Part shown: in pieces, positions 5,611 through 61,886 of the stretch
How the letters are laid out: each line of letters begins with the position of its first letter
Numbering within the stretch: position 1 is the first letter of the stretch
From: Chrysomallon squamiferum
Taxonomy: Eukaryota > Animalia > Mollusca
DNA length: 64,000 nucleotides
NCBI GenBank assembly: GCA_012295275.1
Contig: CM022670.1
Location: forward strand, 22,320,001-22,384,000
Direction of reading: 5' to 3'
The notes under the pieces: generated by a model
Databases searched by the model: none
Told to the model about the DNA's origin: nothing
What the model saw: the letters and a program-made list of their open reading frames with translations, nothing else
Made by a program: the position numbers and the translations under genes

Positions 5611-5846
5611 AAGTTAACATATCTAAACTTTTATATACCTAAACTTTAAGTTTAACTAAGTTAACATACCTAAACTTATATACCTACCTTTTAAATACCT
5701 AAACTTCAAGTTTAACTAAGTTAACATACCCAAACTTTTATATACCTAAACTTCAAAATTACCTTACATCGTAAACAAGGCAAAGAAATATTGAAACTTC
5801 TTTGCCTTGTTTACGATGTAAGGTTATTTTGAAGTTTAGGTATATA
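5611..5846. repeat. Short tandem repeats (AAGTTAACATACCTAAACTT-like units) ending in a 49-bp inverted repeat with a 10-nt loop
   Basis: Arm 5739-5787 is the reverse complement of 5798-5846 with one mismatch. The upstream units repeat the start of the left arm. Confidence 0.9.
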
Positions 5847-9310: not shown

Positions 9311-10457
9311 ATTTAAAGCATTTTACTTTATTCATACACATTTTTGAATTATGTCTATTTTTGAAAATTGGTATAATTAAATTATTATATTTATTTCTAT
9401 GTAGAATGCATTATATAACAGACTTTAGTTAAATCCATAATGTAACCATTTCTACATAATTAATTCTATTCCTGCTATTCTTTTCCATTAGAATTGTTTG
9501 CAGAATGGTTGGTTATATTATATATTGTTATATTGATGTGTGATGTTAGAACATTCAGAGAAATTTTGTTGATCATTAGACTTATAATCAGTGATTAGTT
9601 TAATAATTATAACTAGGTTGCATGTTTTTAGTAGTTAAATATCATTAAATTTATTGTTGTATTGTGCATTAATTCATATTCTTAGTTTGGTAGATATTAG
9701 GTATAGTATTTAAAATGTAATGACCTGAAATGAATAGTTTTAAAATATAGGAATAGTGTAAAATTTCAAGAATCATGGTTCCATTAAATCATAAATTGTC
9801 AAAAAATTATAATACTTCTTGTAAAGTATGTAAACAAAACAAGTTGTTACTTCTAAATAGAAAAAACAAATTATTAATTATTACAATAAATCAAGCTTAC
9901 CACTGATAAGTATGTATTTGCATTTAAGTGGAGATAATAGAGCATTCATTTTCAGTTAGAAAATTATTAATCTATTGGCAGTTTAGATCAAATGAATAGG
10001 AGCTTCAACAGATTAATAATTTTCTTCAAACAAGTTGGGTGCTTGACCATTGCATTTTTGAATTAAAAAAAAATATTGGTCATTTTAAAAGATTTCTTCA
10101 GAGATTTTGTATTAACATCTTTTATTTATCTTTACACATTTTATGATCTAGAAATTTGCAAAAGAGGTATGTGGTGACTGAACATGTTATGCGATTTCAC
10201 AGATTTGGAAAAGTATGTATAAAAAATCCAATGGAGCCCAACAATAGGAGTAACCAATTCATTAAACAACATATATAATAATTGTTTATAATGATGTGGA
10301 GTCAAACAAATACACATTAAATTTCCTGGTTTTTTTGCATTATATCCAGAATTTGTTCATATACAACACATTTATTATTCATAAATAACAAAGATCTGTT
10401 AATGTGTAAGCGGACCTATTTATTAAATAATTTTGCATTATTATTATTATTTAGGTG

Positions 10458-11728
10458 ATGCTTATTGCAAGTAATTACAAAATGGTGTTCCTGGTTCAGA
10501 AGTTTGGCACCTTAACATATAATTGTTGGCACCTCAAGAACATCTGTAGATCAGTGTTGAATATTTGTAAAAGAGGAAAGTCTTCAGATTCTTCACAAAC
10601 TGACTTCAGGTTGTATTTAGAGCAATGTGGAGGTGGCTCTGTGGATTTGGAGAAAAATAATGAAACTGGATTAGCAGTTATTACTTTGAACAATCCTGAA
10701 AAGCGAAATGCATTAACAGGTACCCACAGATATTTGAACTATTAATATTTAAACAACTTAATTTAGTAATTAAATCTAATAAATGAAATTAATCTATTTC
10801 CTCTCATAAATAGTTTTAACAAATAAAGAAATTTTTTTTTTTTTTTTTTTTTAAATGTGAAAAAATTCAGTTTACATGATTTTTCCTTTCTTAGACATAA
10901 TAGAGTTTAAATATATTATTTATCACTGGATTATCCCCTTTTACCAATACACTTCAGTTAAATAAAAATAGACATTTAATGAATGCTGCACAGTTAATTA
11001 TTTTGTTGCTGGTGAGTAAGTATATGCAGAATGTTTGATCTTTTGAAGGTAAAATGATGGTAGAGCTGTCAGACAGAATACATGAACTAGAGGAATGGGA
11101 ACAAGGAAAGGGTTTGGTGTTGCGAGGAGCAGCAGGTACTTTCTGTTCTGGTGCTGATCTTAGTCTTGTTCAGCAACTCGATAGTGGAAATGATGGATTC
11201 AAAATGGCAACTTTTATGCAAGATGTTCTGCTTCGCTGTCATCGTCTTCCTTTGATAAGTGTAGCTCTCATTGACGGAAGAGCTCTTGGTGGAGGAGCAG
11301 AAATGTGCTTGCCATGTGATTTCAGAATAATGACTGAGACAGCGAAAATCGGTTTTGTACAAATTAAGTTAAATATTACTCCAGGATTTGGAGCAGCCAC
11401 ATTTCTAACAAAACAACTTGGTCCAACAAAAGCATTAGAAATATTAAGTATGGGACAGATAATTGATGCAATTTCTGCTAAAGAAATGGGCATTGTACAT
11501 CATGTATTATCAAACAGTGGTGATGTTCTGCAACAGACTAAAGAATGGTTGCTAAGTAGACATTGCAAATATGATGCTACCGTAATTAGATCTCTGAAAC
11601 GTACTATTACTAATAGTGAAGTCTGTGATTATGAAGAATCATTAAAATTTGAAAAACAAATTTTTAAAATGATTTGGTTTGCACCTCAACATGTTAAGGC
11701 ATTAAGCCAAAAAATTAAACATGATTAA
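10458..11728 (+). CDS. ECHDC1: Ethylmalonyl-CoA decarboxylase (crotonase superfamily), ~313 aa, exons 10458-10719 and 11049-11728
   Basis: The phase-1 join gives ...TLNNPEKRNALTG|KMMVELSDRIHELEEWEQGKGLVLRGAAGTFCSGADL...GRALGGGAEMCLPCDFRIM...PGFGAATFL. The GGGSVDL, WxxGKGLVxRG and HxxAL C-terminal segments match ECHDC1. The start ATG (10458 vs 10482) is uncertain. Confidence 0.93.
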
Positions 11729-15688: not shown

Positions 15689-16411
15689 GTAAAAGTAGTT
15701 CCAACCAAAAAAGTTATATTTTAGGTCAGTGTTCGAAAATTCAGAAATTCATTTAGTCATCGTACATTGCCATTACGTGCAGTGGTTGCACGATATTATG
15801 GATATATGTATATTATTTATTTATTTATTTATATTATTTGTGTGTGCGTGTGTGTGTGTGTTTTAATTACTATTTATTTATTTATTTGTAGATAAAGATT
15901 AATTTAAAGTCCTTGGAGTGAACACTACACATACAGAAGTATTTTGTTTTAATCGGTTATTATGTGGGGGTTTTCCATTCAGAACATAGAATTTATATTG
16001 AAACAAAGTCATTTTAGACTGAGTAAACTGTTGAAATTTATTTTATTTTTATGTACGAAATAATGTTTTAAAAAGGGGAATATATTGCAATCCATGTATC
16101 CTAATTAACATGATAAATTATTATGAAACAAATAAATAAATGAATACTTGGAAGAAAATAGTTTAATTACAGCAGCAAGTTCAGGACAAAAATGTACAAA
16201 TGTGCATTTCAATTCAGATTTTAAAAATTACTGTTTGATAATTAAACAAATCTACTAAATTTTTATTCCTGAAAGAAAGGCATATTTAGATGAAATCTTT
16301 CACAGTTACATTACTATTAAAAATTGCCTTTTAAAATGTTGTATCAAAGGTTTTGTTTAATAACCTGTTATTTCTTTTTTTTCCCCCCAGGCTTCATCAT
16401 CTGTCTGATCA

Positions 16412-16645
16412 ATGATGCCTTTCTCTTTCATATCATCTAAGGACCCAGATGCAAATATCAAAAGACTAAAGATGCAGATTAAAACACTGAAGGTTCATGC
16501 ATCTATGAAAAGAATGAAATTATCACAAACACTTCCAGAGTTAATTGAGTATTGTGAAAACCATAAACAACATGATCCTCTTGTTGTACGTGACAAAAGT
16601 ATAAAAAATCCTTTTGTTGACCCAGTTAGATGTACAATAATATAA
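16412..16645 (+). CDS. G-protein gamma subunit, copy A1 (Ggamma30A/GNG13-like class), 77 aa, single coding exon
   Basis: GGL domain: LKMQIKTLKVHASMKRMKLSQTL...YCE...DPLV...NPF, with CaaX CTII*. Strong acceptor at 16390. Confidence 0.93.
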   Translation: MMPFSFISSKDPDANIKRLKMQIKTLKVHASMKRMKLSQTLPELIEYCENHKQHDPLVVRDKSIKNPFVDPVRCTII

Positions 16646-19963: not shown

Positions 19964-21935
19964 ATAATCAGAGTATATATATATTCGAAATATTCACATA
20001 CCTTAATCCATTATAACTAATGACAAAAATTCATGATGTAGATTAAGGAACCCATATAATTTTGTTTTTGTTTTAAATGTTATGAACAGATAGCGTTTAA
20101 TTTAACATTATAAGTTATATTTATTTTATTTCTTTTAATGAATTTAATAAATATATTATCTTGAGGTGATGTGTTATTATTTATTTTATTATTACTGGTA
20201 TTCTTGAAGTTTTGTGTGATTTCTCTCCCCACCCCCATTTTTCTTGTTCCTCCTGAAGCTTTATTTAATTTTATTCGTGTTTATTCTTACGCCTGTTAGT
20301 GTAAAATTGAGGAATGCCGAGTTAGTGAAATTGCATTCTCTAGTATTTGCGGTACACGGAGAACAGTCGCAGTCAATGAAAATGTAGTAACAAAACAGTT
20401 TGTCAGTAAATTGATTAAATTAATTAACAGAACTATAAAATCCGTTGTATTATATTTAGAAAGTACAGTGTTGCATTCAAAATTAAAATAACACAGAAAC
20501 GTTGACTTCTGTTTATTGCCCACCACAGAAGTGTACTTATGAAGTTGTTATGTTGGTTATGTCAAATGTCCATGTTTTTTGTAATGTAAAAGTAGTTACC
20601 ACTGTAGTATTTCCATCTTTGTACTGAAGGATGATATATAAATTCGAATTTTTCTTAAGTCAGTTTTGCATTTTAATTTTTAGGATAATAAGTGAATCCG
20701 ACTTCGATTTCCATTGTTGAGCATTCAATTTAAGAGGAAGTTGTTTTGTAGAAGACAGCATCCACCAATCAACATCCGCTTGCTTTGTATCACAGTGCGA
20801 GGTTGGAAAATTTTGCATAGATAAGGCGATTCGGTATGATTTATTGAATTTCATTTTATAAAATAACTTAGCCATGCTTAGCTTACTAAAGGAAAAACAT
20901 ATATAACGATAAATTAAACGTGTACAAATAATCAGAGTATGTTTGATCTAGGGCCGTATACTTGTTCACGTCACAAAATAACCATTCTTAGATTCTTATC
21001 ATTCTACGATTCGCCCATTCACGGCTATCGGCGCTTTTAAAATGTTATAAGGAATTGTATAATTAATATTAGAAAATTGTAGTTTTAAGTAATAAAATAC
21101 TGTGAAGGTATTTGCCATTCTCATTTTTTCATTTCTGAATGTTCTCTGTGAATTTTTAAATTATTATTTGGTTTGTTCCAAATTCACCCATTAATTATGA
21201 TAATTAGTGACAAATCCACAATGTGTCATAGTGGGTCAGTAGAACTTTACATTTTAAAAATTGCCGACTGATAAAGTGGTGAATTTACTATCCATTCGTT
21301 ACTTATTAACTTACATTTTCAATAACATTTAAAGATAATCTGTAGCTCTTCTGTAGAAAATTTCAGGTTTTTATTAAGAGTAATTGGTAAAGTATAAAAA
21401 ATACAATTTGAGAAAATTTACTACCTGTTTTTTTCATAATTATTAACTATGTCGTACTTATGTAGTTTAGTCCATTTTAGTAGATATTTCATAAAATATT
21501 TTGCTACAATTGTTTTGTTTAATGCTGATATAAAAAAAGTCATATAAAACTAAAAAAAGGCTTCTTTTACTTACCAAACTTGTCAATTCAACCATATTTT
21601 CCAAAAATTGATGCAGGCATGGTATTGCCATGATTAAGGTACTTACAAAACATTTCCTTGCAACTAGCCTACTTTTCTGAAAATAGATGAGTGCCACTAC
21701 TGGACTTATTTCGGTTACAGGGAATGTTTTTGGATATACATTGATCATGGCATAGTAAAATATTGAGCAAAATATTTGATAAACAGACCTAAATAGACAT
21801 TTCTTATTTTATTAATAAATAATAAGGTAGGAAAATGATTTTATACATTTGTATTCAAACAAACACACTCATAAACATGTTTTAATTTATCATATTTAAT
21901 TTTTTTTTATCTTTTTCCTATTTCAGACATTCAGT

Positions 21936-24900
21936 ATGGGTAAGTATTTTAAATAATTAATAATTTTTTTTTTTTTCCAACCCTTTTAATTTAGTATAAA
22001 TAATTTATATTTTGAAGATTATTTAAAATGGTAATACTGGCTTTACTACATAGTTGAACTTAAATGATATCGTTAAAGATAACGTTTGTTATATTTGTTA
22101 GAGAAATAGTTCACAGTGGCTAATAATTTATAATAAAAATTCACATGATTACTGACATAATGTAGAGCCATTAGGAATTGATTTTCCATATATTTATCAA
22201 AACAGCTGTAATAGTAAATGACAGGAAAAAATTAACACGTGAAATTTCCTTCACAATGAGTTTTTCAGATTTCATTACTCTTAAGTTGTAGAGTTATTTA
22301 ATTTTAATTTTAATTTTTTTTAAATATATATTTGCTTTTTGTTTTTGTATTTAAATTCAGAACTGACATTGGTTTGAGAATATTTAGTAATTACACTTAA
22401 ATATTTAAGAATTGTTTTAAATGTTTTTTTAAAAATAATTTTTATTTGACATGTACTGAGTAATTAAGTCATCAATTTAATATTTAATTGTTACACTAGT
22501 TATTTGGTGTAAAGATAATATGTAGATTATTTTTTTGTATTTGCACTGATGTGTTTGTGAAATTAAATACTCAGTCAGCATACTCAGATATTTTTATTAT
22601 TTTAATAATTTCTGATATTGAAATTTGAATACTTTAAAAAATCTAAACTTGATTTGGTCAAGCACAAATAATATTTTGTATCAACAGTTATGTACAAATG
22701 TACTGATAATTGAAGTTGTTATTTTAATACCACTGATATCCATGTTTGATCTTCATTGCAATTACATTCACTCCCTAATAAGTTTCATATGTGCAATATG
22801 AGCATATGATGTTGAATATTCTTACACCTGAAAACATTTGTTTATATTATTAGTATTATTAATTTATTATGTAATAGTTATTTTGTTCGATATTTATCAA
22901 GCTTATCTAATAATAGCTGTACTGTGTCAAAATTAATTAATTGCATGTTTATTAAAGTGTATCTGTGGTGATATGAAAAAATTGTCTAAATATATTCTGG
23001 CTACTTCCAAATTAAATTTTATTTGATCCTGCCATTCAGTGCTAGGTGCTGCTATTATAACAAAGAGGATGGACACATTTTCTCTTAAGTTTATTTTCCT
23101 TTGGTGTAAGACAAAATACAGTTACCACTGTACCAGTCTCCCATGTGTGATGTCTTGGCTCCAGTTGTGAAGGAGTTAAACAGCAGCATTAACATTTGTG
23201 TAACAGTATTTTGTTATTGCCATACTTACATCAATAAAGTAATAACATGCAACAATAAACATTATTATCTTATTAGGCAGTTTATTCCTACTGCCACATA
23301 TACACTTTAACATCTAGTGATTGACACAGATATGCTTAGTGACCAATTTTTTTTTAGTATGAATACAGCCAACAGGTCGAAATTTTCAGTTATTGCAGCA
23401 GTACATGATTAAATTTTTGTTTTGTTTCATATCATACCAGAATGTCAGTATGATTTGACAGTGAATATATTTGTTGTACATCATCATGGTAATCTTGATG
23501 CAATCGTTAGCTTGTTTAGAAATCTGTGACAAAAGCATTGTAACTTATAAAGCATGTCTTCTCTGTTAATATTTTGTACTAACCATTAATAATCATTTTG
23601 ATGAGCTTGAAATTTATCTTTTCATATAGGAACACAAGGGAATGCTGGTGAGAGATGGATGTCTATTAAGTAGAATTACACTAGTTCTTTATTAAGTGTA
23701 TAGACCCATTCAGTGCTGGATTGTTTATTTACAGTTTCTTACTTGGCATTAGATAATTTTTAAATTATTTTATTTAATTTTATATTTAATGATACCAGAT
23801 CATTATATTTTAAATGATTCATCAAAATTGGTATCTGAATAGTAAAAAAACAAAAAACAAATAGCAACAAAAAAAACAACAACAATCATATATATCTATA
23901 TATTAATGCTACATCTATTAAAACTGTTTTTATTTTTATTTTTTTAAACAAATCATTTAATTTGAACATAATTTCACAAAGTATGGTATAAGTCATCGCT
24001 GGATGTAATTTATTCTTTTTCATTTAGTATATTTTTTTTCAATCCTTTTTCCATATTTTTTTCCAAATATTTCAGAGGAAAAGAACCAGTACTGAATGGG
24101 TGTCTCTATATTAACTTTAGACTAATATTTCTTTGTGTTTCACTTATAGTTAGAAATCTTTTTTCTGCATAAATATATGAAATGTTGCAGTTGGCACTGT
24201 TTTTTTAACATTTGTGCACAAATTTTAGTAAAGAATAAAACAAAAAAAATTAAATGAAAATTTAATGAAAAGATAAAATAATCAGATTTGTTCAGACTTA
24301 AAATTTAAATAAATCTGCTTTCAGTATCTTTATATATCCATAATTTATTGTTTTTGAAATTCATTAACCAGACGTACGAATGCATCCAAGAGTGCCATGT
24401 TTCACATTGTTTTAAAATTCATTTTTCATTTGTTACTAAACTTCATTATACAAGGCCTCATCAGTATTTATTGCCATAAGTAGTACATGAACACACACTC
24501 ATACACACACCCACAGAAACAAAAAAAACAAACCCAATAACATGATTTTCCATTCCAACAAAATTTGTTCTTTCATTTTAAAATGTGGTGTTTTTAATTT
24601 CCTTGTATCTGGTGTTTGGTGAAATATATGTGTTATCTGTCTTGTATATATATATATACAGTAATACTTTCTTACTTGTATTTTCACTGATCTTCCAATA
24701 CAATTTTTATTCTTATTTCACAATACTTTTTTTTTTTTTTTTTTTCCATAATAGTACTTAGAATTTATAATAATGTTGGGTTAATTTTTTTATATTCAGT
24801 TAGTATCACAAAGGTAAATGTGACCACATATGTATATTTTCAGTTTTTTATTTGGTCTTGATTACTAACAAATATCTATTTATGGAAAAAGAAAAAATTA

Positions 24901-26440
24901 TAAATATTTTTCTTATACGAATTTCTGAATTCTAAACTCATTTTGCAGAAATAAGTAAATTTGGTGTCAGTTTATTTTTGAAAATACCAAGATTAGCATA
25001 TTTATTTTTTTAACATTGTTTTTGTTTCACTTGTCAAAATTTTACATAAATTGAAAAAGCATTTCTACAAATTTAAACTCTAAAACAGTAAAACATGTTC
25101 TCTTGTGGATTTTTGTGACAGCTTTGTTTACTTCTAGATATATCTAGTTTGCAGTTCAGCAGTTTAGAGTATGAGCATGGCTTTGCTATTTATTTAAAAA
25201 AAAAAATTTTAATGTTTTCAAATTGTTTTTGTTTTTTTGAATTAAATTTGACCTATTTTACCTCATCTTTGGTTTAGAAATTTGAACATACATTTTCATT
25301 TATCTTAGTTATTCTCTTTTAATTAATAACTGTTTTGCTTTATTTGTTGATAATCTGTTCTTAAGTCTGGCATTTAATTTATGTTTAATAGCTGTATTTC
25401 TTACTTGTGCATGCATGTCTTAACATTTTCTTTATTACATACTTATAGACTGGAGACTTTAAATGTGTGTCAGTTCACAGAGGAATTCTTGGAATTTTGG
25501 ATAAACAGGACCATCATGAAAACTTGTTTAATTTATTGTTAAAATTATTGTCTAAGTAATAATTATGCTTAAACCAACTTTAAAAACTATAACACTTTGC
25601 CAAAAAACAAAAAAAAAAATATATATATAAAAAAAAATAAATAAATAAATAAATATTAATAATACTTTAAGAAGTTAAAACATCTTGTTCTTAACTACAA
25701 GTACACCACCAAAATCAAATAAATTGTCATTGCACATAAGACTGTTGCACAACTCTCAAGATCTCTGTATCTAATGTTCTGCAAGAAACAAGTCCAGAGT
25801 TTTATAATAACATTTTGGACATTAAAGAATACCAGTGACAGTTTGCTTTTATGCCACTATTAGAATTAATGTATTAAGTTAAGAAATATATAAATGGAGG
25901 AGTTCACTAGTTTAAAAGATAACTGAAAGCACACTAGATACACCATTATAGTGGATGACCAGTGCAATTTTAACACTTGCTCAAGTTGTTATCGTGATTA
26001 CAAGAGTTTCTGGAAAATTAGTGGTGTAGTGCCTGCTTGTTTTTCTTTCCTGCAAAAATATTAATTAAATAATCTATTGCACTTTACTTTTCTTTTAACT
26101 CACTTTGTTTTTGTGATCTATTTCTTTCTGATGCAGAATTTTTTGGTGACAAAATATGAGCAAAACTGAATGATTTAAAAAAATCTGTGATTAAAACTAT
26201 TTTTCTTTCTCTGCAGCTGACATGCGCATGAACAAATTGCAGGAAGGTCTTCAGCAGCAGAGGCGACTGATTGAGCAGCTTCGTTGCGAGGCTCAGATCA
26301 CTCGGATGAGAGTGTCACAAGTCATTGAGGATATAGTCAAATACTGTGAAACCCACAGAGAGGAGGATGTACTTATAATTGGGTTTAACAAGCCCCAGGA
26401 GAATCCTTTCAAGGAGAAGGGTGGATGCACAATATTATAA
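21936..26440 (+). CDS. G-protein gamma subunit, copy B1 (Ggamma1-like): ATG-G at 21936-21939, optional microexon 23630-23647, main exon 26217-26440; 75 or 81 aa
   Basis: LQQQRRLIEQLRCEA...EEDVLIIGF...NPFKEKGGCTIL* resembles insect Ggamma1. tttcag|ACATTCAGTATGG|gtaagt joins in frame to ctgcag|CTGACATG, giving MADMR. The main exon is certain; the upstream exons are inferred from splice signals and paralog conservation. Confidence 0.92.
23630..23647 (+). other. 18-nt phase-1 microexon GAACACAAGGGAATGCTG of G-gamma B1
   Basis: cttttcatatag|...|gtgaga, TACTAAC at 23577-23583, length divisible by 3, no stop codon, identical in paralog B2. Confidence 0.8.
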
Positions 26441-32387: not shown

Positions 32388-32621
32388 ATGCCATACCCTT
32401 TCACCTCTGCAAGGGATTCTGATGCAAATGCGAAAAAGCTAAAGATGCAGATTCAAACTCTTAGGGTTCATGCATCGATGAAAAGAGAGAATTTATCAAG
32501 AACTCTTCAGGAAATGATTGAATATTGTGAGTCCCACAAGCAACATGACCCTTTGGTCACACGAGACAAAAATTTTGAAAACCCATATAAAGACACCAAA
32601 TTTAAATGTACTATATTATAA
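32388..32621 (+). CDS. G-protein gamma subunit, copy A2 (Ggamma30A/GNG13-like class), 77 aa
   Basis: MPYPFTSARDSDANAKKLKMQIQTLRVHASMKRENLSRTL...DPLV...NPY...CTIL*. About 50/77 residues are identical to A1 by hand alignment. The acceptor at 32363 makes 32388 the likely start. Confidence 0.93.
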   Translation: MPYPFTSARDSDANAKKLKMQIQTLRVHASMKRENLSRTLQEMIEYCESHKQHDPLVTRDKNFENPYKDTKFKCTIL

Positions 32622-38600: not shown

Positions 38601-40801
38601 CTCTCCCCAATGTTGGTGAAATAGCTATTTTATTAGTAAAAGCTGGTAATTGGAAACAAAATAAATTCCAAGCATGAAAGATACATTATAAATTCCATTT
38701 TTTCATGTAATATTAGGTTAAAAAAAAGAAAAAAGAAAGAAACATTGTAAAACCTAAAAATTAATAATGAATACCATAAATGTTTTTCTCCAGTGGATCA
38801 TGGGTAATTCCCAATTTTCCATGCCTCAACTATAAAGCTAACTTCATCATCATACTAATTCTGTATCTATCCCACAATGATGGTGAATAATTTGAATTAA
38901 AATAAAATGAGCACATGAGAGGACTGTGTTTTATTTTGCTGTTACAGCTGTAAAGGTACATGTACATCATAAAAAAAAAGAAAAAAAAGAATGTATTTAT
39001 TAAAGTTTATGGTACACCTTAAAGGTGAAGAGGAACTACTTAAATAACTTCTAATGAATGTGACTTATAAAAAAAAAATACATTGTTTTTAATAAGCTAT
39101 TCAGATGAACTGATAATGTATTTCAAAGTGGTAAAATCATAATTATATGTTTGGAAAGTTCCCTATTTTTGCAAAGTATGTTAATTTTATTTCAGATGGA
39201 TGATGACAAATGTGAAATAATTATTTAATTTAAATGAAGCTGTAATGTTTAATGCTAACAATAGATCAAATTATTTTCCTCAGATTTAGATTAATAAATA
39301 ATTAAGTGGTATGTTATGCCTTACATGCTGTGTACTCCTTACTCACAGTAAATGTCAGTGAATAATAATATCTCCAGAGTGTAATAACTAAGTGATTTTC
39401 AAGCTTTTACGTTATTATTTCAGTTAATTAAATCCTTTTAATTTTTCAGTTTTTAGTTTTGATGATATGAACAGAACACACACACACACACATATCATCA
39501 AGGATTAATTTTATTAAGAAAGTTGTAAAACTGCATCCTGAAGCAGACAGTCTGAAAAGGTCTTGTTAAGAATTTAAAAAAAAAAAAAAATGCAAATATT
39601 TCCAATAACTGCAACAGCAGTAATTCTGACAGTATAAAAACTATGGATGGTCTATTCTGAGAATGTGCACTATTAAACACAAAAACAACTTCATTTCATC
39701 CTGATTTCTAAATTTTAAAAAAATAAGACAATAAAAGTACCCAAAGATTCCTTGACTGCCAATAAAAAAATAGAACAGAATTAGTAAGAATTAATTTATT
39801 ATCCAGATTTAATGCTCCATGTTATCAGAAATTATTTTCAAGATTAACTTTTTGGAATCTCAGTTTTTTAAATGAATGTTTTATTATTATTCTGCTGCAG
39901 GTCGAGTTGATTTGGAAGGAACTTTTCAGGTTCTCAAGTGACCTCTTTGTTTTTGTTTTTAAAAACAACACATAACAATGTAAGTATTGAGTTCTAAAAT
40001 ATGTTGATTATGCATTAATATGGTCCCAACTAGAAGTTATATTTCTATTAACATATTTAAAAATATATATATATTAAAAAAATAATAATAATAAAAATAA
40101 ACAAATTAATCATAAACAAAAAAAAAAAAAAAAAAATATATATATATAATACAAAAAAAAAAAAAAAAAAAAAAAAATTAAATAAATAATAATATAAGAA
40201 AACCATAACTGAAATAACAAAAATGAATTAATGAGGGAGATAAATGATACTCCAGAATGTGGATAGCTTCAGAAGATTATTATGACAAAATAATGTAAAC
40301 TTAAATAAAAACATATCTGTTCAGTTCTTACTTATCTTAAATACTACTTTATGCTTTAAATAACACATTATTTCAACATAATTAATATTATAAAATTATT
40401 TTATTTTATTTATATATTCAAAAAATAGTAATAATAAATAAATAAATAAATAAATAAAAAAAAAACAATTAATTTGAAATAAATTTTCCCTCTGTTTATT
40501 TTAACAGAACATTTAAGCTGTATTATTATTTTAAAACTATATAATTTTTTATTTTAACAAGCTTTCCCTTCTCTTTGTTTTAACAAAACATTTAAGCTGT
40601 ATTATTATTTTTAAAATATTTAATTTTTTTTAATGTAATTTTACACCTATTAATAATATTTATTTATCCTTTTTTTTTATGCAATTTTTTTATTTTAACA
40701 TAATTTCACACCTATTAAAAATAGTTATTTATCTTTTTATCTTTTCTTTTTTGCTATATTTGTTTCACATGTGACATTTAATTTTTACAGATTTCAGCAA
40801 A

Positions 40802-43800
40802 ATGGGTGAGTTTTATAAAAAGTGTAATTTTGTTTTTCTTGTTACTTCCTAGCATAGTCCATCCTGTGTATGTTTTTCACTTCATTATATTAACAACAAC
40901 TGCACTAAATTTTTGAACAAATTACTGCTAATTGTACTACTAACAAACTCGAAAGCAACAGTAATAACAACAACAATGAAATAAATAAATAAGGTCTGAA
41001 AACATGTTTGATTATAATATTAGTGTACAGTTATCTCCATAAATTATGTTAATATGACTTTTTTTACCATGGTTTTAAGCTGGATGACCTTTTTCTAAAT
41101 AATAAATTTTAATTAATTTTAATAGAATTTCTGTATTGTAATATAATGTTATTAAAATCAAAATGAATTAGATTGTGTGTAATATATTATGATGAAATAA
41201 AATATGATATCATTTCAAGATCAGTCTGTGAGCCAGACTCACTATAGCTTGTTGAAAAAATAAACATTAAAATTATTTGTTTTCCATTAACAGTATACAT
41301 AACTGTGAAATAAATATTAAGCTTTAAAATGTATTTTGAACTGGATAGTGACAGGCATTTTGCTTTTAGTTATGTGAAAACATCATAGCTATGATAAAAA
41401 AATTAAAAAAAAAAAAAAAAAAAAATTATAAATAATGATAATAATAATAATATTACTACTACTACTACTACTACTACTAACAACACATAACCAATAAATA
41501 CTTAAAATAGGAATTTAAAAAAAAAAAAATCCTTTTGTCATTGCAACAGTTAACAGATGTTCAAGTAATGGCCAGTTGTATATAAATGATTTTTAAAAAC
41601 CTGTATTTTATGCATGCTGGAATGTAATTAATTATGTTCAACATCATGGTAATCTTGATGCAGTCGTCAGCTTGAATAGAAGTCGGTGACAAGCATTGTG
41701 CTCTATTTGTTACAAATACAACATCTGTGTTCAAACCATTAAACTGGGCATGAACACTTTAAATATTAACTGAATAACAATTCAATTTTTAACTTCAGAA
41801 GCATGTTTTCTCTGTAAATATTTTGTACTAACCATTAATAACCATTTTGATGAGCTTGAAATTTATCTTTTCATATAGGAACACAAGGGAATGCTGGTGA
41901 GAGATGGATGTCTATTAAGTAGAATTACACTAGTTCTTTATTAAGTGTATATACCCATTCAGTGCTGGATTGTTTTCAAACTGCCTATCTTGTTGCAGTA
42001 AATAGTAGTGAAAAGTCATGAAAAATCTCGAACATTTATTATTTTGTAAAATAAAATATAATAAAATTTTAAAATCTGTAGCCCTCTGCCCCAGAATGAT
42101 CCCTCAAATTAAAAACAAAGAGAGAAATTCAGTAATATGAACAAAATAGGCCTGTTGGTATATTTCTGGGTTTCAAAAAAAAAAAAAAAAATTAAAACAA
42201 CATTTAAGTAAAAATAAAAATTCATAATTAACTGGTCCCTGTAGTTGTAGTTTTTTTGAAATTTTCTTCATTTTGAATTTGCTGAAACAAAATTTACCTA
42301 TTTCTTTCTTCTAATTTTTAAAATTTTAAAATTATAATTTAAATTACATCTATGAATGTATATTTTGAAGTAACTTTCATGCCTTACATCTTTTTTGTTT
42401 CAAATTTATCTGTTTGTCTCTCTATCTTTCTGTCTATCTACCGATCTAATTGTCTGTCTTTCTGTCTATCTGTCCATATTGAAAATTGTATGACTTTAAA
42501 AAATAAAAAATGTTGGTTATGAAAAATATCTGGCATAGATTAACCAGCACTGAATGGGTGTCTCTATATTAATTTTAGACTAATATTTCTTTGTGTCTCA
42601 CATATAGTTAGAAATCTTCTTTCTGCATAGATATATGAATTGTTACACCTTTTTAAGCAAACAAAACTGTGCACATGACTTGACTTGGACAAAATGTCTT
42701 TTTTATACCGTTTAAATCACAACCTCTAAAGTGTGTAATAACTTTTTAACTGCTTAATAAATAGCAAAAAAGAAAACTTTTTATGTTTATCATGTCAGAC
42801 TAGTTAAATATTTTTAAAGAATAAAAAGAAAACTTACCAGTGTTATTTCAAGCAATTATTTCAATGCAATACGAATGCATCAAAGAATGCCATGATTACA
42901 CACTTATAAAAAAATTTATTTTTCATTCTTCATTGAATATCAGTATGTAATGACTTAAAGAAAGATTCTTTAGTATTCCCAAACAGTTCAAAATTAGTAA
43001 AATTGCATTTAACATTTTTAATTTATATTTTTATTTTTATTTTTTTTTTAAATTTTAGTTTAAACTTTCCATTCTGTTCCTTTCATTTTGCTTTCATGTT
43101 AAAATCAGGATAATCATGAAAAATACACATTTAAAATTTATGGAACAGGTTCATTAAATTTATGTATGTTGTCATACATTGTGTGTGTGTCATGAAATAA
43201 TAATATTTCTAAGTCCACAACACATTCATATTATAGGGGTAATTACAGAATACTGATAAATGAGGAGAAACAGCAGCAATATTTTGCATTTTAACAAGCA
43301 GCATAAAGCAGTTTTGGGTTAACTGGTTTCACAGAGCTTTGTATGATAATTTCAATTTGTTTGGTATTATGTTGTATGAATTCTTGTGGACCTAATTTAT
43401 TGATATTGACATGTATGAGCATGGCTTTGTTACTTAACACTCACAGTTCTGCTTTCTTTCTTTTCTCTATTTTATGTCTTTAATATGTCTCTGATGAGTT
43501 GTGTAAATAATATATTGTGTGTGTGTGTGTGTGTACATATGTATCTGTGTGTATATATATGTATGTATGTGTGTGTGTGCACATTATTGACCTTTATTAT
43601 CACCAGCAGCATGACAAAAAACATCTCTTCTTCACAACAGTTGACAAACATCTTGATTTGTCTTACTCTATTTAATAATTATAAACATTTGAAACATCAC
43701 ATTTCACTCTAGTCCCTTTTTTCTGAAAAACACTAAATTATTAAGCATCTTGTTTCAAAAACACACCAAGGAAAGCACAAATTCACCAAAATTAGAGAAA

Positions 43801-44146
43801 TGTAGTATACAGTTATTGCTCGAGCATCTGTACATTCAACCTCATCTATAGCTACTGAAAGAAATTACCAGATTCCTTTTTTTTTTTTTTTTTTTTTTTT
43901 TTCTTTTTTTTTTTTTTTTCAGCTGACATGCGCATGAACAAATTGCAGGAAGGTCTTCAACAGCAGAGACGACTGATTGAGCAGCTTCGTTGCGAGGCTC
44001 AGATCACTCGGATGAGAGTGTCACAAGTCATTGAGGATATAGTCAAATACTGTGACACCCATAGAGAGGAGGATGTACTTATAACTGGCTTTAACAAGCC
44101 CCAGGAGAATCCTTTCAAGGAGAAGGGTGGATGCACAATATTATAA
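40802..44146 (+). CDS. G-protein gamma subunit, copy B2 (Ggamma1-like): ATG-G at 40802-40805, optional microexon 41879-41896, main exon 43923-44146
   Basis: The main exon differs from B1 at 2 residues. tacag|ATTTCAGCAAAATGG|gtgagt joins in frame to the poly-T acceptor cag|CTGACATG. A candidate UTR exon lies at 39901-39979. Confidence 0.92.
41879..41896 (+). other. 18-nt phase-1 microexon of G-gamma B2
   Basis: Same sequence and splice sites as 23630-23647; TACTAAC at 41826-41832. Confidence 0.8.
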
Positions 44147-44478: not shown

Positions 44479-46360
44479 TTAAAAAAATTTCAATCAAATG
44501 TAATTGAAGTAATTTAAGATTTGTTTAATGTGTTTCATCTTAGAATCTCTTCATATACTAAGAACTAAAATGTGTTGTATAAAAGCATTTATGAACATTG
44601 TAATACTTAACTTTTATCTTTTTCTTTATAAATCACTTATTTTATGTACATGTAAACAATTTCCCATTTAAAAGTAAAGCTTGTTTAAAAATAACTACCA
44701 TATTGAAGTTACATAAAAAAAGAAAGATTTCATATTTGACAATTTTAACAATATCATGCACATGTTACATAAATAAAATTTGAAAATATGGAAATGTTAA
44801 CAACAGATGTTTGTTTCAATGAAGGCTATTTCAACATGTAACAACCAAATCAAATATTAATGTCAAACAATTTATGTGAATGAACAATTAATGGCATACC
44901 AGTATAAAGAAAATTTCAGCTTTTTGAATGTCATACAATTATTTCATTTTATCATTTATATCGTGTAATAAAAACTTCAGTTTTCAAGTTAAAAAAATAT
45001 TCGGTTTTTTTAAATATATTTTAATTTTATATGAAAAAAATGTCATGCCTTTGGTATCTAAAAAAATAATTTTAAAAACCCAGTATTTTATGGGAAGATC
45101 ATTTTTTGTTCATTGATCTGTAGCTGTTTTATTTATTATTATTAGACTTTTTGTGATATACACGGGTGAACTGAAATTTAACAGGTAGCAAGTTTTGAGA
45201 CAAATTCATTTTATTTGTACAAATCAGCAGTGGTTTTTATTGTCTGATTTTTTGTACTTACATCATTTTCATCTAATACACCATTAATAATCTTTCCTTT
45301 GAATACTACATGTTCACTTTTTAGATTAATTTTATGTAGTATAAATGTGTAGTTTAATTAAAATAATCTGAATGTGAATGTTGTTTTGTTTCCTTATATC
45401 CACACAACATAATGGCCCTCTAATGGAGAATGATCATATATCACACTAAAGCTTAACAATTACTACAATATATCTTTATTATTTCTACGAAGCTAGTTTG
45501 AGTGTAAATTGTTGTTGTTGCCTGAAGAAACTCTCAATAAAGAATAGTTTTAAAATGGAAAAATGAAGATGATTTTGGAGATGGACAAGTGTTAATGATC
45601 AAAAGAGCAAAGCACATATATCACAAACAGTTCTTTGAACATTTTAAAATTGTTATTGTTATTGTTATTATGATTTTTTTGTTATTATTATTTTTATTTA
45701 TTTGTGATATACATAATTCATTAATCTTCTAATCTAAATATTTTTATATTAAACCCACATAACCAACTGCTGTGCATTTATTTCTGTTGCAGAGTTGTTA
45801 TAAATATGATTTAGAACCACGATTTATTCAGTTTCACGAAGATAAAAAAATAAATATATATATTGCATTGAATAAAAAATCCAATAGAACAAAGGCATAC
45901 ATTTTCAGAAATAATGCACTAGAAACAAATGTTATCATTATCATAAACCATGAATTCAAGACTGTAACCTTTAACTGAACCAGGTATCAGTATGTATCTG
46001 TTATTTAAATTCATAGTGGCAAATTCAGGTGGTGATAACTGATAAGTGTTTAAATACATAATAGCTAAGCTATATGAAAAAAGTGTCAGACTGACCTAAA
46101 CACAGTGCAGAAAAATGTTACTAAAGTTATTCATAGTACTTAATTAAAATGCATTGATTATTTGGTGTCATTGGCTATTAAATATCAAATATATGGTATT
46201 CTGACACTTCTAAATTGGAAAAAAATTGATTTTTCTTTTTTTTTGTTTTTTTTTGCTACAGAAATAAACACATTTAATGGAGTTTTTGATAAGGTATCAC
46301 AGGATGCTGGGTGAAACTCAAATAGTAGATACCACTTCTTGAATAGTTTCTAATAATGTG

Positions 46361-47090
46361 CATTAAACCATACTGTCAAATATACTGAGCCTAAGTGTGT
46401 GTGTGTGTTCATTAAACCATACTGTCAAATATACCGAGCCTAAGTGTGTGTGTGTGTTCATTAAACCATACTGTCAAATATACTGAGCCTAAGTGTGTGT
46501 GTGTGTTCATTAAACCATACTGTCAAATATACGGAGCCTAAGTGTGTGTGTGTGTTCATTAAACCATACTGTCAAATATACGGAGCCTAAGTGTGTGTGT
46601 GTGTGTGTTCATTAAACCATACTGTCAAATATTAAACCATACTGTCAAATATAGCCCTAAGTGTGTGTGTGTGTTCATTAAACCATACTGTCAAATATAT
46701 TGAGCCTAAGTGTGTGTGTGTACATTAAACCATACTGTCAAATATATTGAGTGTTCATTAAACCATACTGTGTGTGTGTGTGTGTACATTAAACCATACT
46801 GTCAAATATATTGAGCCTAAGTGTGTGTGTGTGTGTTCATTAAACCATACTGTCAAATATATTGAGCCTAAGTGTGTGTGTGTACATTAAACCATACTGT
46901 CAAATATATTGAGCCTAAGTGTGTGTGTGTGTGTACATTAAACCATACTGTCAAATATATTGAGCCTAAGTGTGTGTGTATGTATGTACATTAAACCATA
47001 CTGTCAAATGTACTGAGCCTAAGTGTGTGTGCTTGCATATACATTAAACCATACCTTCAATTGTACTGAGCCTAAGTCTGTGTGTGTGTT
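46361..47090. repeat. Minisatellite, ~15-16 units of ~47-53 bp: CATTAAACCATACTGTCAAATATA(C/T)TGAGCCTAAG + (TG)n
   Basis: Directly visible tandem units with a constant core and a variable TG tract; a few truncated units lie in the middle. Confidence 0.97.
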
Positions 47091-48432: not shown

Positions 48433-48975
48433 AAACTAAGAAACGCCTAGAGACCAACTGCAATTAGGCAGATCGATCATGCAATGTTTTGTCTGCAGAA
48501 CCTCAGTATACTGAATTCGGTTAACTATATTACTGAAAGAGGAGCATCTGTTAATAATACCTTAAACACAGTGAAGACATTTTTTTTTTTTAGTTGATTT
48601 CATTTACCATTTCTGTGTCAGGGATTCGCTGTTATTAAAGCCATTTGATTTGTTCCTAGGAAAGTGATTTTATGAGTATCTTATATAGTGAGTAATTAGT
48701 GAGTTCCGTACGGTATGTATGATCGTATCACATCATTTGTTCCACCCCCGTTACGCTTATTTGCATGGTCTACAGGTTTTACCACTCTGTATCAAAAGCA
48801 GGTCCTCAGAATATATGGAGACTAAAATGAATTTATAAACACTAAACGCAAGTATATTTTTAAACATAAGAATTTATTATATTTTGAAAAATATAAAAAA
48901 AAAAAAAAAAAAACAATAAAATATTTTTTTACAAATCAGTCATACTAATAGTTTTCTTTCTGGCATCAGTTAAGT

Positions 48976-49647
48976 CTATCCAATAACCTTGGGTGCACCG
49001 GCAGCGTACCTTCGTCCTGAAATTGATAGGTAAAGAGTCAGACGAACAGAAATACAGACTTACAAACATCCTAATGTCCAGATATATAGGAAAAACGTCT
49101 GAACGGAAAATAAAGTCAATTTACAAAAAAAAAAACAGATATATGGATAGGCAGGCTGACGGACTACTGGCAAATCGAATAAATAGTATTTGTTTAGATA
49201 ATCTGAAAGGACTGATGAATAAAGAGAGACAAGAACAAAGATAGAGAAATTTATATATGGATATGAAGGTAAATAAAGAGAAAGAATAAAAGACTGAGGC
49301 AGACAGAAATAGATAGATTAAATTTAAAGCAGATTAACGCAAACTATGTTAATTAATAAAATAGACTCACCGTAATCGAAGAAGTCATCAGACATAGCCA
49401 TAAGTCCAAGTCCGGCCATTCCTCCCATGCCCATCATACCCATACCCATTCCGTAACCCATGCCCATACCATAACCCATTCCTCCGTAGCCGTAACCTCC
49501 GTAACCGTAACCTCCGTAACCTCCGTACATGCAACCTCCGAACATGCAAGGTCTGCGCATCATAGGCATCATAGGAGGCATCATGAGAGTTTGAGAGATC
49601 TGGACCATTGTGACAAGAAGTGTGAGGGCGAAGACTAATTTGAGCAT
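48976..49647 (-). CDS. Secreted Gly/Met/Tyr-rich protein, paralog 1, 105 aa, coding exons 49647-49371 and 49016-48976
   Basis: Signal peptide MLKLVFALTLLVTMVQISQT, GGY/GM repeats, then G|gtgagt to tttcag|GA giving ...SDDFFDYGRRYAAGAPKVIG*. A UTR exon ends at 49970 and a TATA box lies at about 50040-50045. The structure is mirrored in paralog 2. Confidence 0.9.
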
Positions 49648-50029
49648 GATGATGTCTGTGAAGAATAGTATAAAAAAAAAAAATAATAATAAAACAGATG
49701 AATCAATGTATGAAGACTCATGGTATATTAATATTAAAAGTTTAATATAATCGAAGTTTATCAAGGGCTACTTTTGTTTTGACAAATGGCCGTGTTATTG
49801 CAGTTTTCTATATATCGTCAGAATCCATACTTCATTATTCCAAATTAAGATTATTAAATTTTATCAGATAAGAATAAACGCAAAATAATAATAATAATAA
49901 GAAGAAGAAGAACAACAACAACAACAACAAACCTCTACATTCTAAATTAAAATAAACATAAAAGCGTACCTTTCTTTGTTGTTTTGGAGTTACTAAGAAG
50001 CTGTGAGTTGGTTTGATTTGGAACTGTTT

Positions 50030-53170: not shown

Positions 53171-53655
53171 AAGTAATAAATTAATTAACTTAATTTAATT
53201 TGCATGATAAACAAATAAGACTGTAGACCACTGTCCAGGACGAGGATCCCTTCATCTGAAAAGTTTCGATGTCCGAAGTGATGATATTTTACAACTTTTG
53301 GATTGTTTTGTACGCTCAAACTTGTTAAAAAAAAAAAAATGTTATATTTAAAAAAAAAAAAAAAAAAAAAACAACAACCAAAAACACACACACATACAAT
53401 ACTGATGGAATCCCAACCTCGTTCTTAAATGCAAGGTACTTGTTTGATTCAAAGTATATCAGCCCAGTATAATAATGATATGAGACTATTTTGCCTTTAA
53501 GCTTATTTATTAAAAATGTAAACAAAATTAACTGATCAACACATTTCTTTTTAAATAAACAATTTATTACATTTAAAAAATCACCAAAAGATTTTTTTTC
53601 AAAACAGTCAATATATAAATATATATTTTTTTTTTCTTTCTAACATCAATAACTT

Positions 53656-54337
53656 CTATCCAACAATTTTGGGTGCACCGCTGGCTAGTCTTCTTCCTGA
53701 AATTGATAAAATATATAGGTAAATAGACGAAGAGACACACAAAGGCACGGACATGCTAAGAGATCACTAGAGAGAAAGACTGAAAAAAAAAAAAAAAAAG
53801 AAAAGTTTACAGATGGATGTAGGTAGAACGACAGATTGGCAAATTAAATAAATTGTATTTGATTTGATAATCAAAAAAAAAAAAGGGTTGATGATTAAAA
53901 AGAGAGACAAGAAAAAAGATAGAGAAATTTATATATAAATACGAAGGATTAGAAAGAGAAAGAGTAAGAATCTGAGGTAGAAACAGAGAGATTAAATTCA
54001 AAAGCAGATTAACGCAAACTATGTTAATTAATAAAATAGACTCACCGTAATCGAATAAGTCATCAGACATCGCCAAAAGTCCAAGTCCGGCCATTCCTCC
54101 CATGCCCATCATACCCATGCCCATTCCGTAACCCCCCATGCCCATGCCCATGCCCATTCTTCCGTAGCCGTAACCTCCGTAACCTCCGTATCCTCCAAAT
54201 CCTCCGTATCCTCCGTACATGCAACGTCCGTACATACAAGGTCTGCGCATCATCGGCATCATTGGCATTCCGTAGCCAGCTTGCGAGATCTGGACCATTG
54301 TGACTAGAAGTGCGAGGGCGAAGACTAGTTTGAGCAT
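53656..54337 (-). CDS. Secreted Gly/Met/Tyr-rich protein, paralog 2, 110 aa, coding exons 54337-54046 and 53696-53656
   Basis: Signal peptide MLKLVFALALLVTMVQISQA and GGY/GM repeats. The spliced C-terminus is ...SDDLFDYGRRLASGAPKIVG*. A UTR exon ends at 54760 (CAA|gtaagt). Confidence 0.9.
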
Positions 54338-54490
54338 GATGATGTCTGTGAAGAATAACAAGACAATAAATAACGTGGCAAAACTTTTAATGCGACCTAT
54401 GCTGCTTTGCAGTCAGAGATTACTCTTGGAATTAATAGTCAGTAAATTCGATCTATTTTGTTAATCTGAAATAAAACAAATTTCTCTTTT

Positions 54491-56749: not shown

Positions 56750-61886
<5,137 letters not shown>

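Follow-up and report, generated by a model that had tools for sequence, protein, structure and literature searches.

The window analysed here, a stretch of 64,000 nucleotides from Chrysomallon squamiferum, consists of AT-rich DNA (GC 22-33%) and carries two G-gamma gene pairs in tandem, A1-B1 and A2-B2, which form a tandem-duplicated two-gene unit with exons at 16409-16645, 26217-26440, 32388-32621 and 43923-44146. In Elysia, gene models join A and B into one (P0026), and a metagenome locus (L010) has two G-gamma matches, which suggests an older origin of the tandem layout. Further frames read like Elongin C (2146-2457, -), an enoyl-CoA hydratase-family protein (10455-11728, +) and a glyoxalase-domain protein (59959-60773, +), and two paralogous genes at 48907-49767 and 53575-54412 (-) encode small proteins that are rich in Gly, Met and Tyr and begin with a stretch resembling a signal peptide, possibly structural secreted proteins. 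A foldback-like hairpin of 49 bp with 98% complementarity and a loop of 10 nt occupies 5739-5846 and has partial tandem copies at 5611-5764, and the window also contains a tandem repeat array at 46356-47090 with a period of roughly 50 nt.

On the forward strand, B1 comprises a start exon of 13 nt (21927-21939) that is flanked by AG and GT and ends one base after the start codon (phase 1), a frame-preserving microexon of 18 nt (23630-23647, phase 1-1) and a G-gamma-1-like last coding exon running to the stop codon (26217-26440). The joined model of B2 has a start exon at 40791-40805 that likewise ends with the start codon plus one base, a microexon at 41879-41896 identical in its letters to that of B1, and the last coding exon at 43923-44146; a second candidate start-codon exon of B2 (AG, ATGG, GT) at 38794-38803 has a weaker donor than the one at 40791-40805. 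At the protein level, B shares 99% identity with the G-gamma-1-like protein of Gigantopelta aegis, for which RefSeq holds the isoforms X1 (81 aa) and X2 (75 aa), their difference being exactly the 18-nt microexon. Joining the start-codon exon, the 18-nt exon and the last exon reproduced X1 with one residue different, and skipping the 18-nt exon reproduced X2, again with one residue different, so that the microexon is real in a close relative, where it is alternative by annotation.

The microexon peptide was present in only one of the 234 compared proteins, the G. aegis copy being unchanged, and a search with the N-terminal 40 residues gave 12 matches and no additional carrier. Both members (2/2) of the Haliotis clusters have the 75-aa form only, and none of the 12 G-gamma loci from a metagenome scan contained the microexon or the intronic islands described below. 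Contigs of four out of five runs, from two studies, were compared with 20000-23880, and none of the listed joints connected the microexon to the start-codon exon; as lengths of 13 and 18 nt lie below the reach of the method, this result has no bearing on inclusion. One RNA-library contig (runs X1 and X3) matches from 23566 on and differs before it, and perhaps stems from a different intron whose branch-point region is similar. N-terminal isoform pairs of G-gamma-1 were found in Ruditapes (P0049/P0156), Dreissena (P0153/P0154) and Octopus (P0173/P0174), indicating that the N-terminal end of G-gamma-1 has been varied repeatedly in molluscs. These pairs were rejected as instances of the microexon because they differ from residue 1 and resemble alternative first exons, and a Solemya pair resembling a 4-residue insert was rejected as well, a GTG start call being more likely.

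In the intron downstream of the B1 microexon, positions 23704-23719 and 24086-24101 form a 16-bp complementarity with one G-U pair, and 41953-41968 pair with 42544-42559 in B2, both as the original prediction had it. The arms of this duplex, here termed H3, each occur exactly twice in the window. The lone difference between the paralogs, T/C at 24090, was said to preserve pairing and does so by turning G-U into G-C; it is the sole change in 32 arm positions and, as a single pair-preserving change (n=1) between paralogs, does not amount to covariation. The loops are indeed unequal and unalignable (366 nt in B1 and 575 nt in B2, with no collinear BLAST match between them). The proposed extension of the pairing to about 30 bp, on the other hand, shrinks to about 23-24 pairs by simple extension, and the conserved block described as ~70 nt exists but, counted together with the arm, is 106 nt long (24084-24189; identity 92%), its conservation being limited to these two paralogs.

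The window holds 216 stems with 16 bp or more, at most one G-U pair and arms within 1 kb, and those with an arm GC of at least 0.4 are both H3 duplexes and seven (TG)n microsatellite stems; 30 dinucleotide shuffles yielded no stem of this class (at least 16 bp, arm GC at least 0.4). Among about 21,170 background windows, overlapping and taken from both strands, none was as good as H3 in either paralog (z -9.0 and -9.7), and the 16-bp complementarity is far above chance. Of the roughly 21,170 windows, the best background match is a near-copy of the H3 5' arm at 23031-23044, found in B1 only and 600 nt upstream of the microexon; its pairing energy with the H3 3' arm is -24.2 kcal/mol, and it may either compete for this arm or have arisen by chance. 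The H3 5' arm can also pair with the start-codon exons, at about -19 kcal/mol in B2, but this was rejected as lying within background. That the arms are termini of a high-copy MITE or foldback transposon was not supported either, given the low copy number, two per arm in the window and two by read depth, and interiors that do not align between the paralogs. Read depth in run X5 was 129.5 on the block common to the paralogs and 132.5 in the 5'-arm bin, against 53.3 and 57.7 on copy-specific contigs, a ratio that indicates two copies, both existing as DNA in this run, with the depth covering the 5' arm side and the run possibly related to the assembly and so no independent source. Rfam gave no match at gathering score in the window.

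BLAST between the paralogs returned five intronic islands (23475-23541, 23538-23726, 24084-24189, 24375-24430 and 25169-25192), and in full-region as well as two-sequence folds four of the five are arms of nested long-range helices, H1, H2 and H3, in both paralogs. Islands as short as 27 nt, separated by hundreds of unalignable bases, coincide with the helix arms in nested order. The element had been described as one duplex; H3 is present, but two further predicted helices were overlooked, and the reported match would be the innermost of the three. The outermost, H1, comprises 21 pairs in both paralogs and has its arms in the two introns flanking the microexon, at 23485-23507 upstream and 24376-24399 downstream in B1 and at 41643-41667 and 42871-42896 in B2. 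It thus has complementary arms in both flanking introns, as expected of a loop-out, and is predicted to loop the microexon out. In the two-sequence fold of B1 it reached P 0.98, and no background window equalled it in either paralog (0 of 21,168 in B1). The differences between the paralogs within H1 are confined to a bulge that shifts and to two positions that are mismatched.

The 5' strand of H2 consists of position 23629, the microexon and the donor GT (23629-23649; 41878-41898 in B2), and its 3' arm, at 24121-24141 (42579-42599 in B2), begins with ACTAAT. In B1, 20 of the 21 positions pair, five of them as G-U and with one C.A mismatch, and the helix spans the whole microexon plus the GU donor; in B2, where one extra pair is broken (A-U to A.C), 19 of 21 remain. 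ACTAAT (24121-24126) pairs with the last four microexon bases and the GU. No background window equalled H2 in B1, the best being only 0.2 kcal/mol weaker, while 26 of 21,168 windows equalled it in B2.

Additional pairings were found around these helices. A local hairpin at 23677-23700, identical in B2, occupies the interval between donor and H3 (P 0.84), and a 9-nt complement of the acceptor tract (23620-23628) lies at 24174-24182, a weak pairing rivalled by a local hairpin (P 0.48 in B1; 0.64 for 8 pairs in B2). The fifth island contains 17 nt (25169-25185) identical to 43413-43429, with a GCATG about 1.52 kb past the microexon in both paralogs; the pairing scan found no partner for it common to both. 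The H1 5' arm includes a donor-like ATGGTAAT (23485-23494) and the H3 3' arm a CAG..ATGG-GT arrangement resembling the start-codon exons (24086-24105), each pairing with U1 weakly, at about -5 kcal/mol; the helices may hide cryptic donors.

How much weight the likeness of the two paralogs can bear depends on their history. At fourfold sites, the coding exons of B1 and B2 differ at 1 of 23 positions, against 9 of 16 in the neighbouring A paralogs, which, with introns that do not align, suggests gene conversion between B1 and B2, acting on B only. With conversion probable, the identity of B1 and B2 is not independent evidence; conversion can raise identity in the 176-nt island, which has 4 differences, an effect hardly to be expected in the short islands of H1. 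Differences number 3 in 115 positions of the helix cores and 14 in 223 of the remaining islands, not significantly rarer in the cores (Fisher p 0.11), and no two-sided, compensatory pair change was found in H1, H2 or H3 between B1 and B2. One could therefore see in these elements functionless leftovers of a transposon or inverted duplication, kept alike by conversion, a view that would also accommodate the single record of the peptide among the compared proteins, to which the 12 N-terminal matches added none. We consider it very improbable, as short, distant islands coincide with nested helix arms, the arms are two-copy by depth, and G. aegis has the same peptide.

Folding of the full region gave probabilities (B1/B2) of 0.89/0.90 for H1, 0.93/0.84 for H2 and 0.98/1.00 for H3. 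The mean unpaired probability of the microexon fell from 0.31/0.39 without the distal arms to 0.06/0.14 with them. When H3 was blocked in the model, P(H2) dropped to 0.73 in B1 and 0.54 in B2, so that H3 behaves in the model as a zipper for H2; in stepwise folds H3 forms first, and H2 follows once its strand is made. The inner region of B2 folded with a z of -3.47, none of 20 shuffles being equally stable. The joined islands folded at -102.8 in sense against -77.0 in antisense, and at -107.8 against -86.6, a sense-strand advantage that is only suggestive because of G-U bias. Donor accessibility was 0.29/0.31 with H2 and 0.23/0.26 without it, and since it is thus not lowered by H2, the model backs masking of the exon body and not of the donor specifically. 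Blocking ACUAAU made H2 collapse in B2 (P 0.08), whereas the B1 exon stayed paired (unpaired probability 0.07).

A GCATG, which we take to be an RBFOX-type core, lies at 23552-23556, 78 nt upstream of the microexon and at the same place in B2. Targets of eMIC (Srrm234) carry a UGC shortly upstream of the acceptor. The microexon shares with them a very short, frame-preserving exon (18 nt, phase 1-1), yet no TGC occurs in the 60 nt upstream of the acceptor in either paralog, so that it is unlike a typical eMIC target; the UGC feature itself was not found in the accessible part of bioRxiv 10.1101/584003. TACTAAC at 23577-23583 is the likely branch point of the microexon as well as a QKI/SF1 core, with UAAY half-sites downstream. 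According to the accessible portions of the respective sources, the QKI site is bipartite, with a core and a UAAY half-site (PMC2697983), and QKI and SF1 compete at ACUAA branch points in mammals (PMC13004596).

That the duplex controls inclusion, as the original prediction proposed, is plausible for an exon annotated as alternative in G. aegis, but its picture of a bridge with a QKI site is incomplete. The QKI/STAR-type ACTAAT named beyond the distal arm does exist in both paralogs, 19 nt past the H3 3' arm, and is preceded at 9 nt by a UAAY half-site; it is, however, predicted to pair with the exon end and the donor. Forming the end of the 21-nt H2 strand (P 0.93/0.84), the site would be masked in the folded state, and the prediction makes the block an antisense mask instead of a free protein site brought in by a bridge. 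A QKI-type site may still act here, though it would more probably compete with the mask than serve as an enhancer delivered by a bridge. By the 50-nt cut-off for bridges in the accessible part of PMC8052449, ACTAAT is close enough to its mate arm with 19 nt; the H3 5' arm begins 56 nt after the microexon, slightly beyond that limit, and in the model the site is not available when the bridge is formed.

An RNA bridge, in which H3 brings the QKI/STAR site to the donor and promotes inclusion while H2 is incidental or a minor conformer, thus appears rather unlikely to us. It can draw on the proximity of ACTAAT and its half-site to the H3 3' arm, on paralog changes that preserve UAAY (at 24115, and at 23593 beside the upstream ACTAAC), on H2 being the weakest of the three helices, and on RALGAPA1, whose nested helices carry RBFOX2 and QKI sites to the exon (PMC8052449, accessible part). 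Besides the predicted pairing of the motif in H2, however, 15 further conserved exon-complementary bases and H1 would be left unexplained, and TAAY is so common here (20 per kb) that half-sites carry little weight.

The composition of the distal block allows for another role, that of a second acceptor for a poison or terminal exon, with H3 bringing the donor beside it and H2 silencing both. ACTAAT would then serve as branch point, followed by a pyrimidine tract (76% and 71% pyrimidines in the paralogs) and a TAG at 24147-24149 (AG 24148-24149), the first AG 24 nt past the would-be branch A; reading in gene phase stops at the eighth codon in both paralogs, with TAA in B1 and TAG in B2, and the effective intron would measure about 104 nt once H3 has closed. 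Yet the complement of a purine-rich exon is necessarily pyrimidine-rich, the same layout recurs at 5 of the other 51 + strand ACTAAY sites, and no good donor follows (U1 pairing weak, -1.3 kcal/mol). We regard this role as unlikely.

H2 might also be an ADAR substrate of the paralytic type, an ECS plus DCS that delays splicing, with exon As or position 24125 (an A opposite C) being edited. Recoding is generally low in non-coleoid molluscs. An intronic strand complementary to the exon and donor GU, as expected of ECS/DCS elements, is present with the 20 and 19 pairs given above, and the one C.A mismatch, involving A 24125 inside ACUAAU, is kept in both paralogs, B2 having a second A.C. A-to-I sites are moreover enriched in conserved complementary regions (PMC8052449, in the part accessible). 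Against editing, three RNA-library contigs, unspliced, of depth 2.5-3.8, possibly DNA, with rare variants dropped and covering the 5' strands, contained no other letter over the exon or the H3 5' arm. Taken together, we judge this distinctly unlikely. The bridge, the second acceptor and ADAR editing can each coexist with masking and looping-out of the microexon.

The latter remains the reading that we prefer, and we see an even chance that the three nested helices cover and loop out the 18-nt exon, which would likely be skipped until the fold is outrun or opened by a protein. The sequence itself shows the arms, how they nest, that they persist as islands within unalignable introns and that the exon matches an isoform difference annotated in a close relative; the course of events would be as follows. 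H3 would be the first to close, at a distance from the donor of about 440 nt in B1 and 650 nt in B2, and would help H2 to zip the distal pyrimidine-rich strand onto microexon and donor, whereupon H1 would join both flanking introns. The default would be skipping via masking and loop-out, a direction of effect that we infer; loop-outs and blocked splice sites are described as associated with lower inclusion (PMC8052449 and PMC10790352, accessible parts). Inclusion could come about if the microexon is recognised before the distal strand is transcribed, or if a STAR/QKI-type protein at UAAY-ACUAAU unzips the weak donor end of H2, and tissue control may be added by QKI/SF1 competition at TACTAAC and by RBFOX-type sites.

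At the protein level, inclusion turns the MA start into an MG start, MGTQGNA, the sole MG start among the 234 compared proteins. The G-gamma N-terminus is far from the prenylated end, and N-myristoylation prefers Ser/Thr at position 6, which the inclusion form lacks. The MGTQGNA start fits the relaxed, loose PROSITE N-myristoylation pattern as quoted in the accessible part of PMC1885993. We treat an N-myristoylated inclusion form, suggested by these residues, as a lead only; a literature search returned nothing on a G-gamma N-terminus switching to a myristoylation-type start, which would be new for this subunit, if true. It would be a long shot to suppose that a STAR protein, or ADAR at the conserved A.C inside ACUAAU, sets a three-helix lock whose opening to inclusion yields a G-gamma that is both prenylated and N-myristoylated.

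Microexon control is usually ascribed to proteins, and a structure-gated case in a mollusc would, if true, be compact and easily tested, its significance being limited by a basis in folding models and in one non-model lineage. In the literature, with subscription papers mostly out of reach, we found no description of this locus or of such a structure in gastropods. The mode of action would be that of known long-range splicing structures, namely loop-out, blocked exon, ECS/DCS and paralog-conserved elements, and the new part would be the full antisense cover of a microexon within a loop-out.

Among these systems, as far as the accessible parts of the sources describe them, the loop-outs and bridges of ENAH, RALGAPA1 and GPR126 (PMC8052449, PMC10790352) likewise have nested long-range intronic helices beside a cassette exon, with one pair flanking the exon and RBFOX/QKI-type motifs at or near the arms. 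Unlike in those cases, the exon is here itself a helix arm, with all 18 bases and the donor GU covered, and the conservation is between paralogs only and the structures are predictions only. QKI/SF1 control at ACUAA branch points (PMC13004596, accessible part) is mammalian, and the feature shared with it is the TACTAAC motif, at the level of sequence only. The ECS/DCS of Drosophila paralytic (PMC4299485, accessible part) resembles the present locus in its multi-helix structure and in an intronic strand complementary to exon and donor, whereas the snail locus has an optional microexon and, in addition, an outer loop-out helix, and no editing was seen there in shallow contigs of the 5' strands. 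A parallel in approach is provided by ISRE1/ISRE2 of SCN-alpha, complementary intronic elements that also emerged from paralog comparison and whose structure promotes skipping and works with Rbfox (bioRxiv 10.1101/2025.08.16.670673, accessible part). In SCN-alpha, these ancient elements form short, diffuse helices with compensatory changes at mutually exclusive duplicate exons (same source), while the snail microexon would be masked directly, by long helices, and has its peptide on record in one related species.
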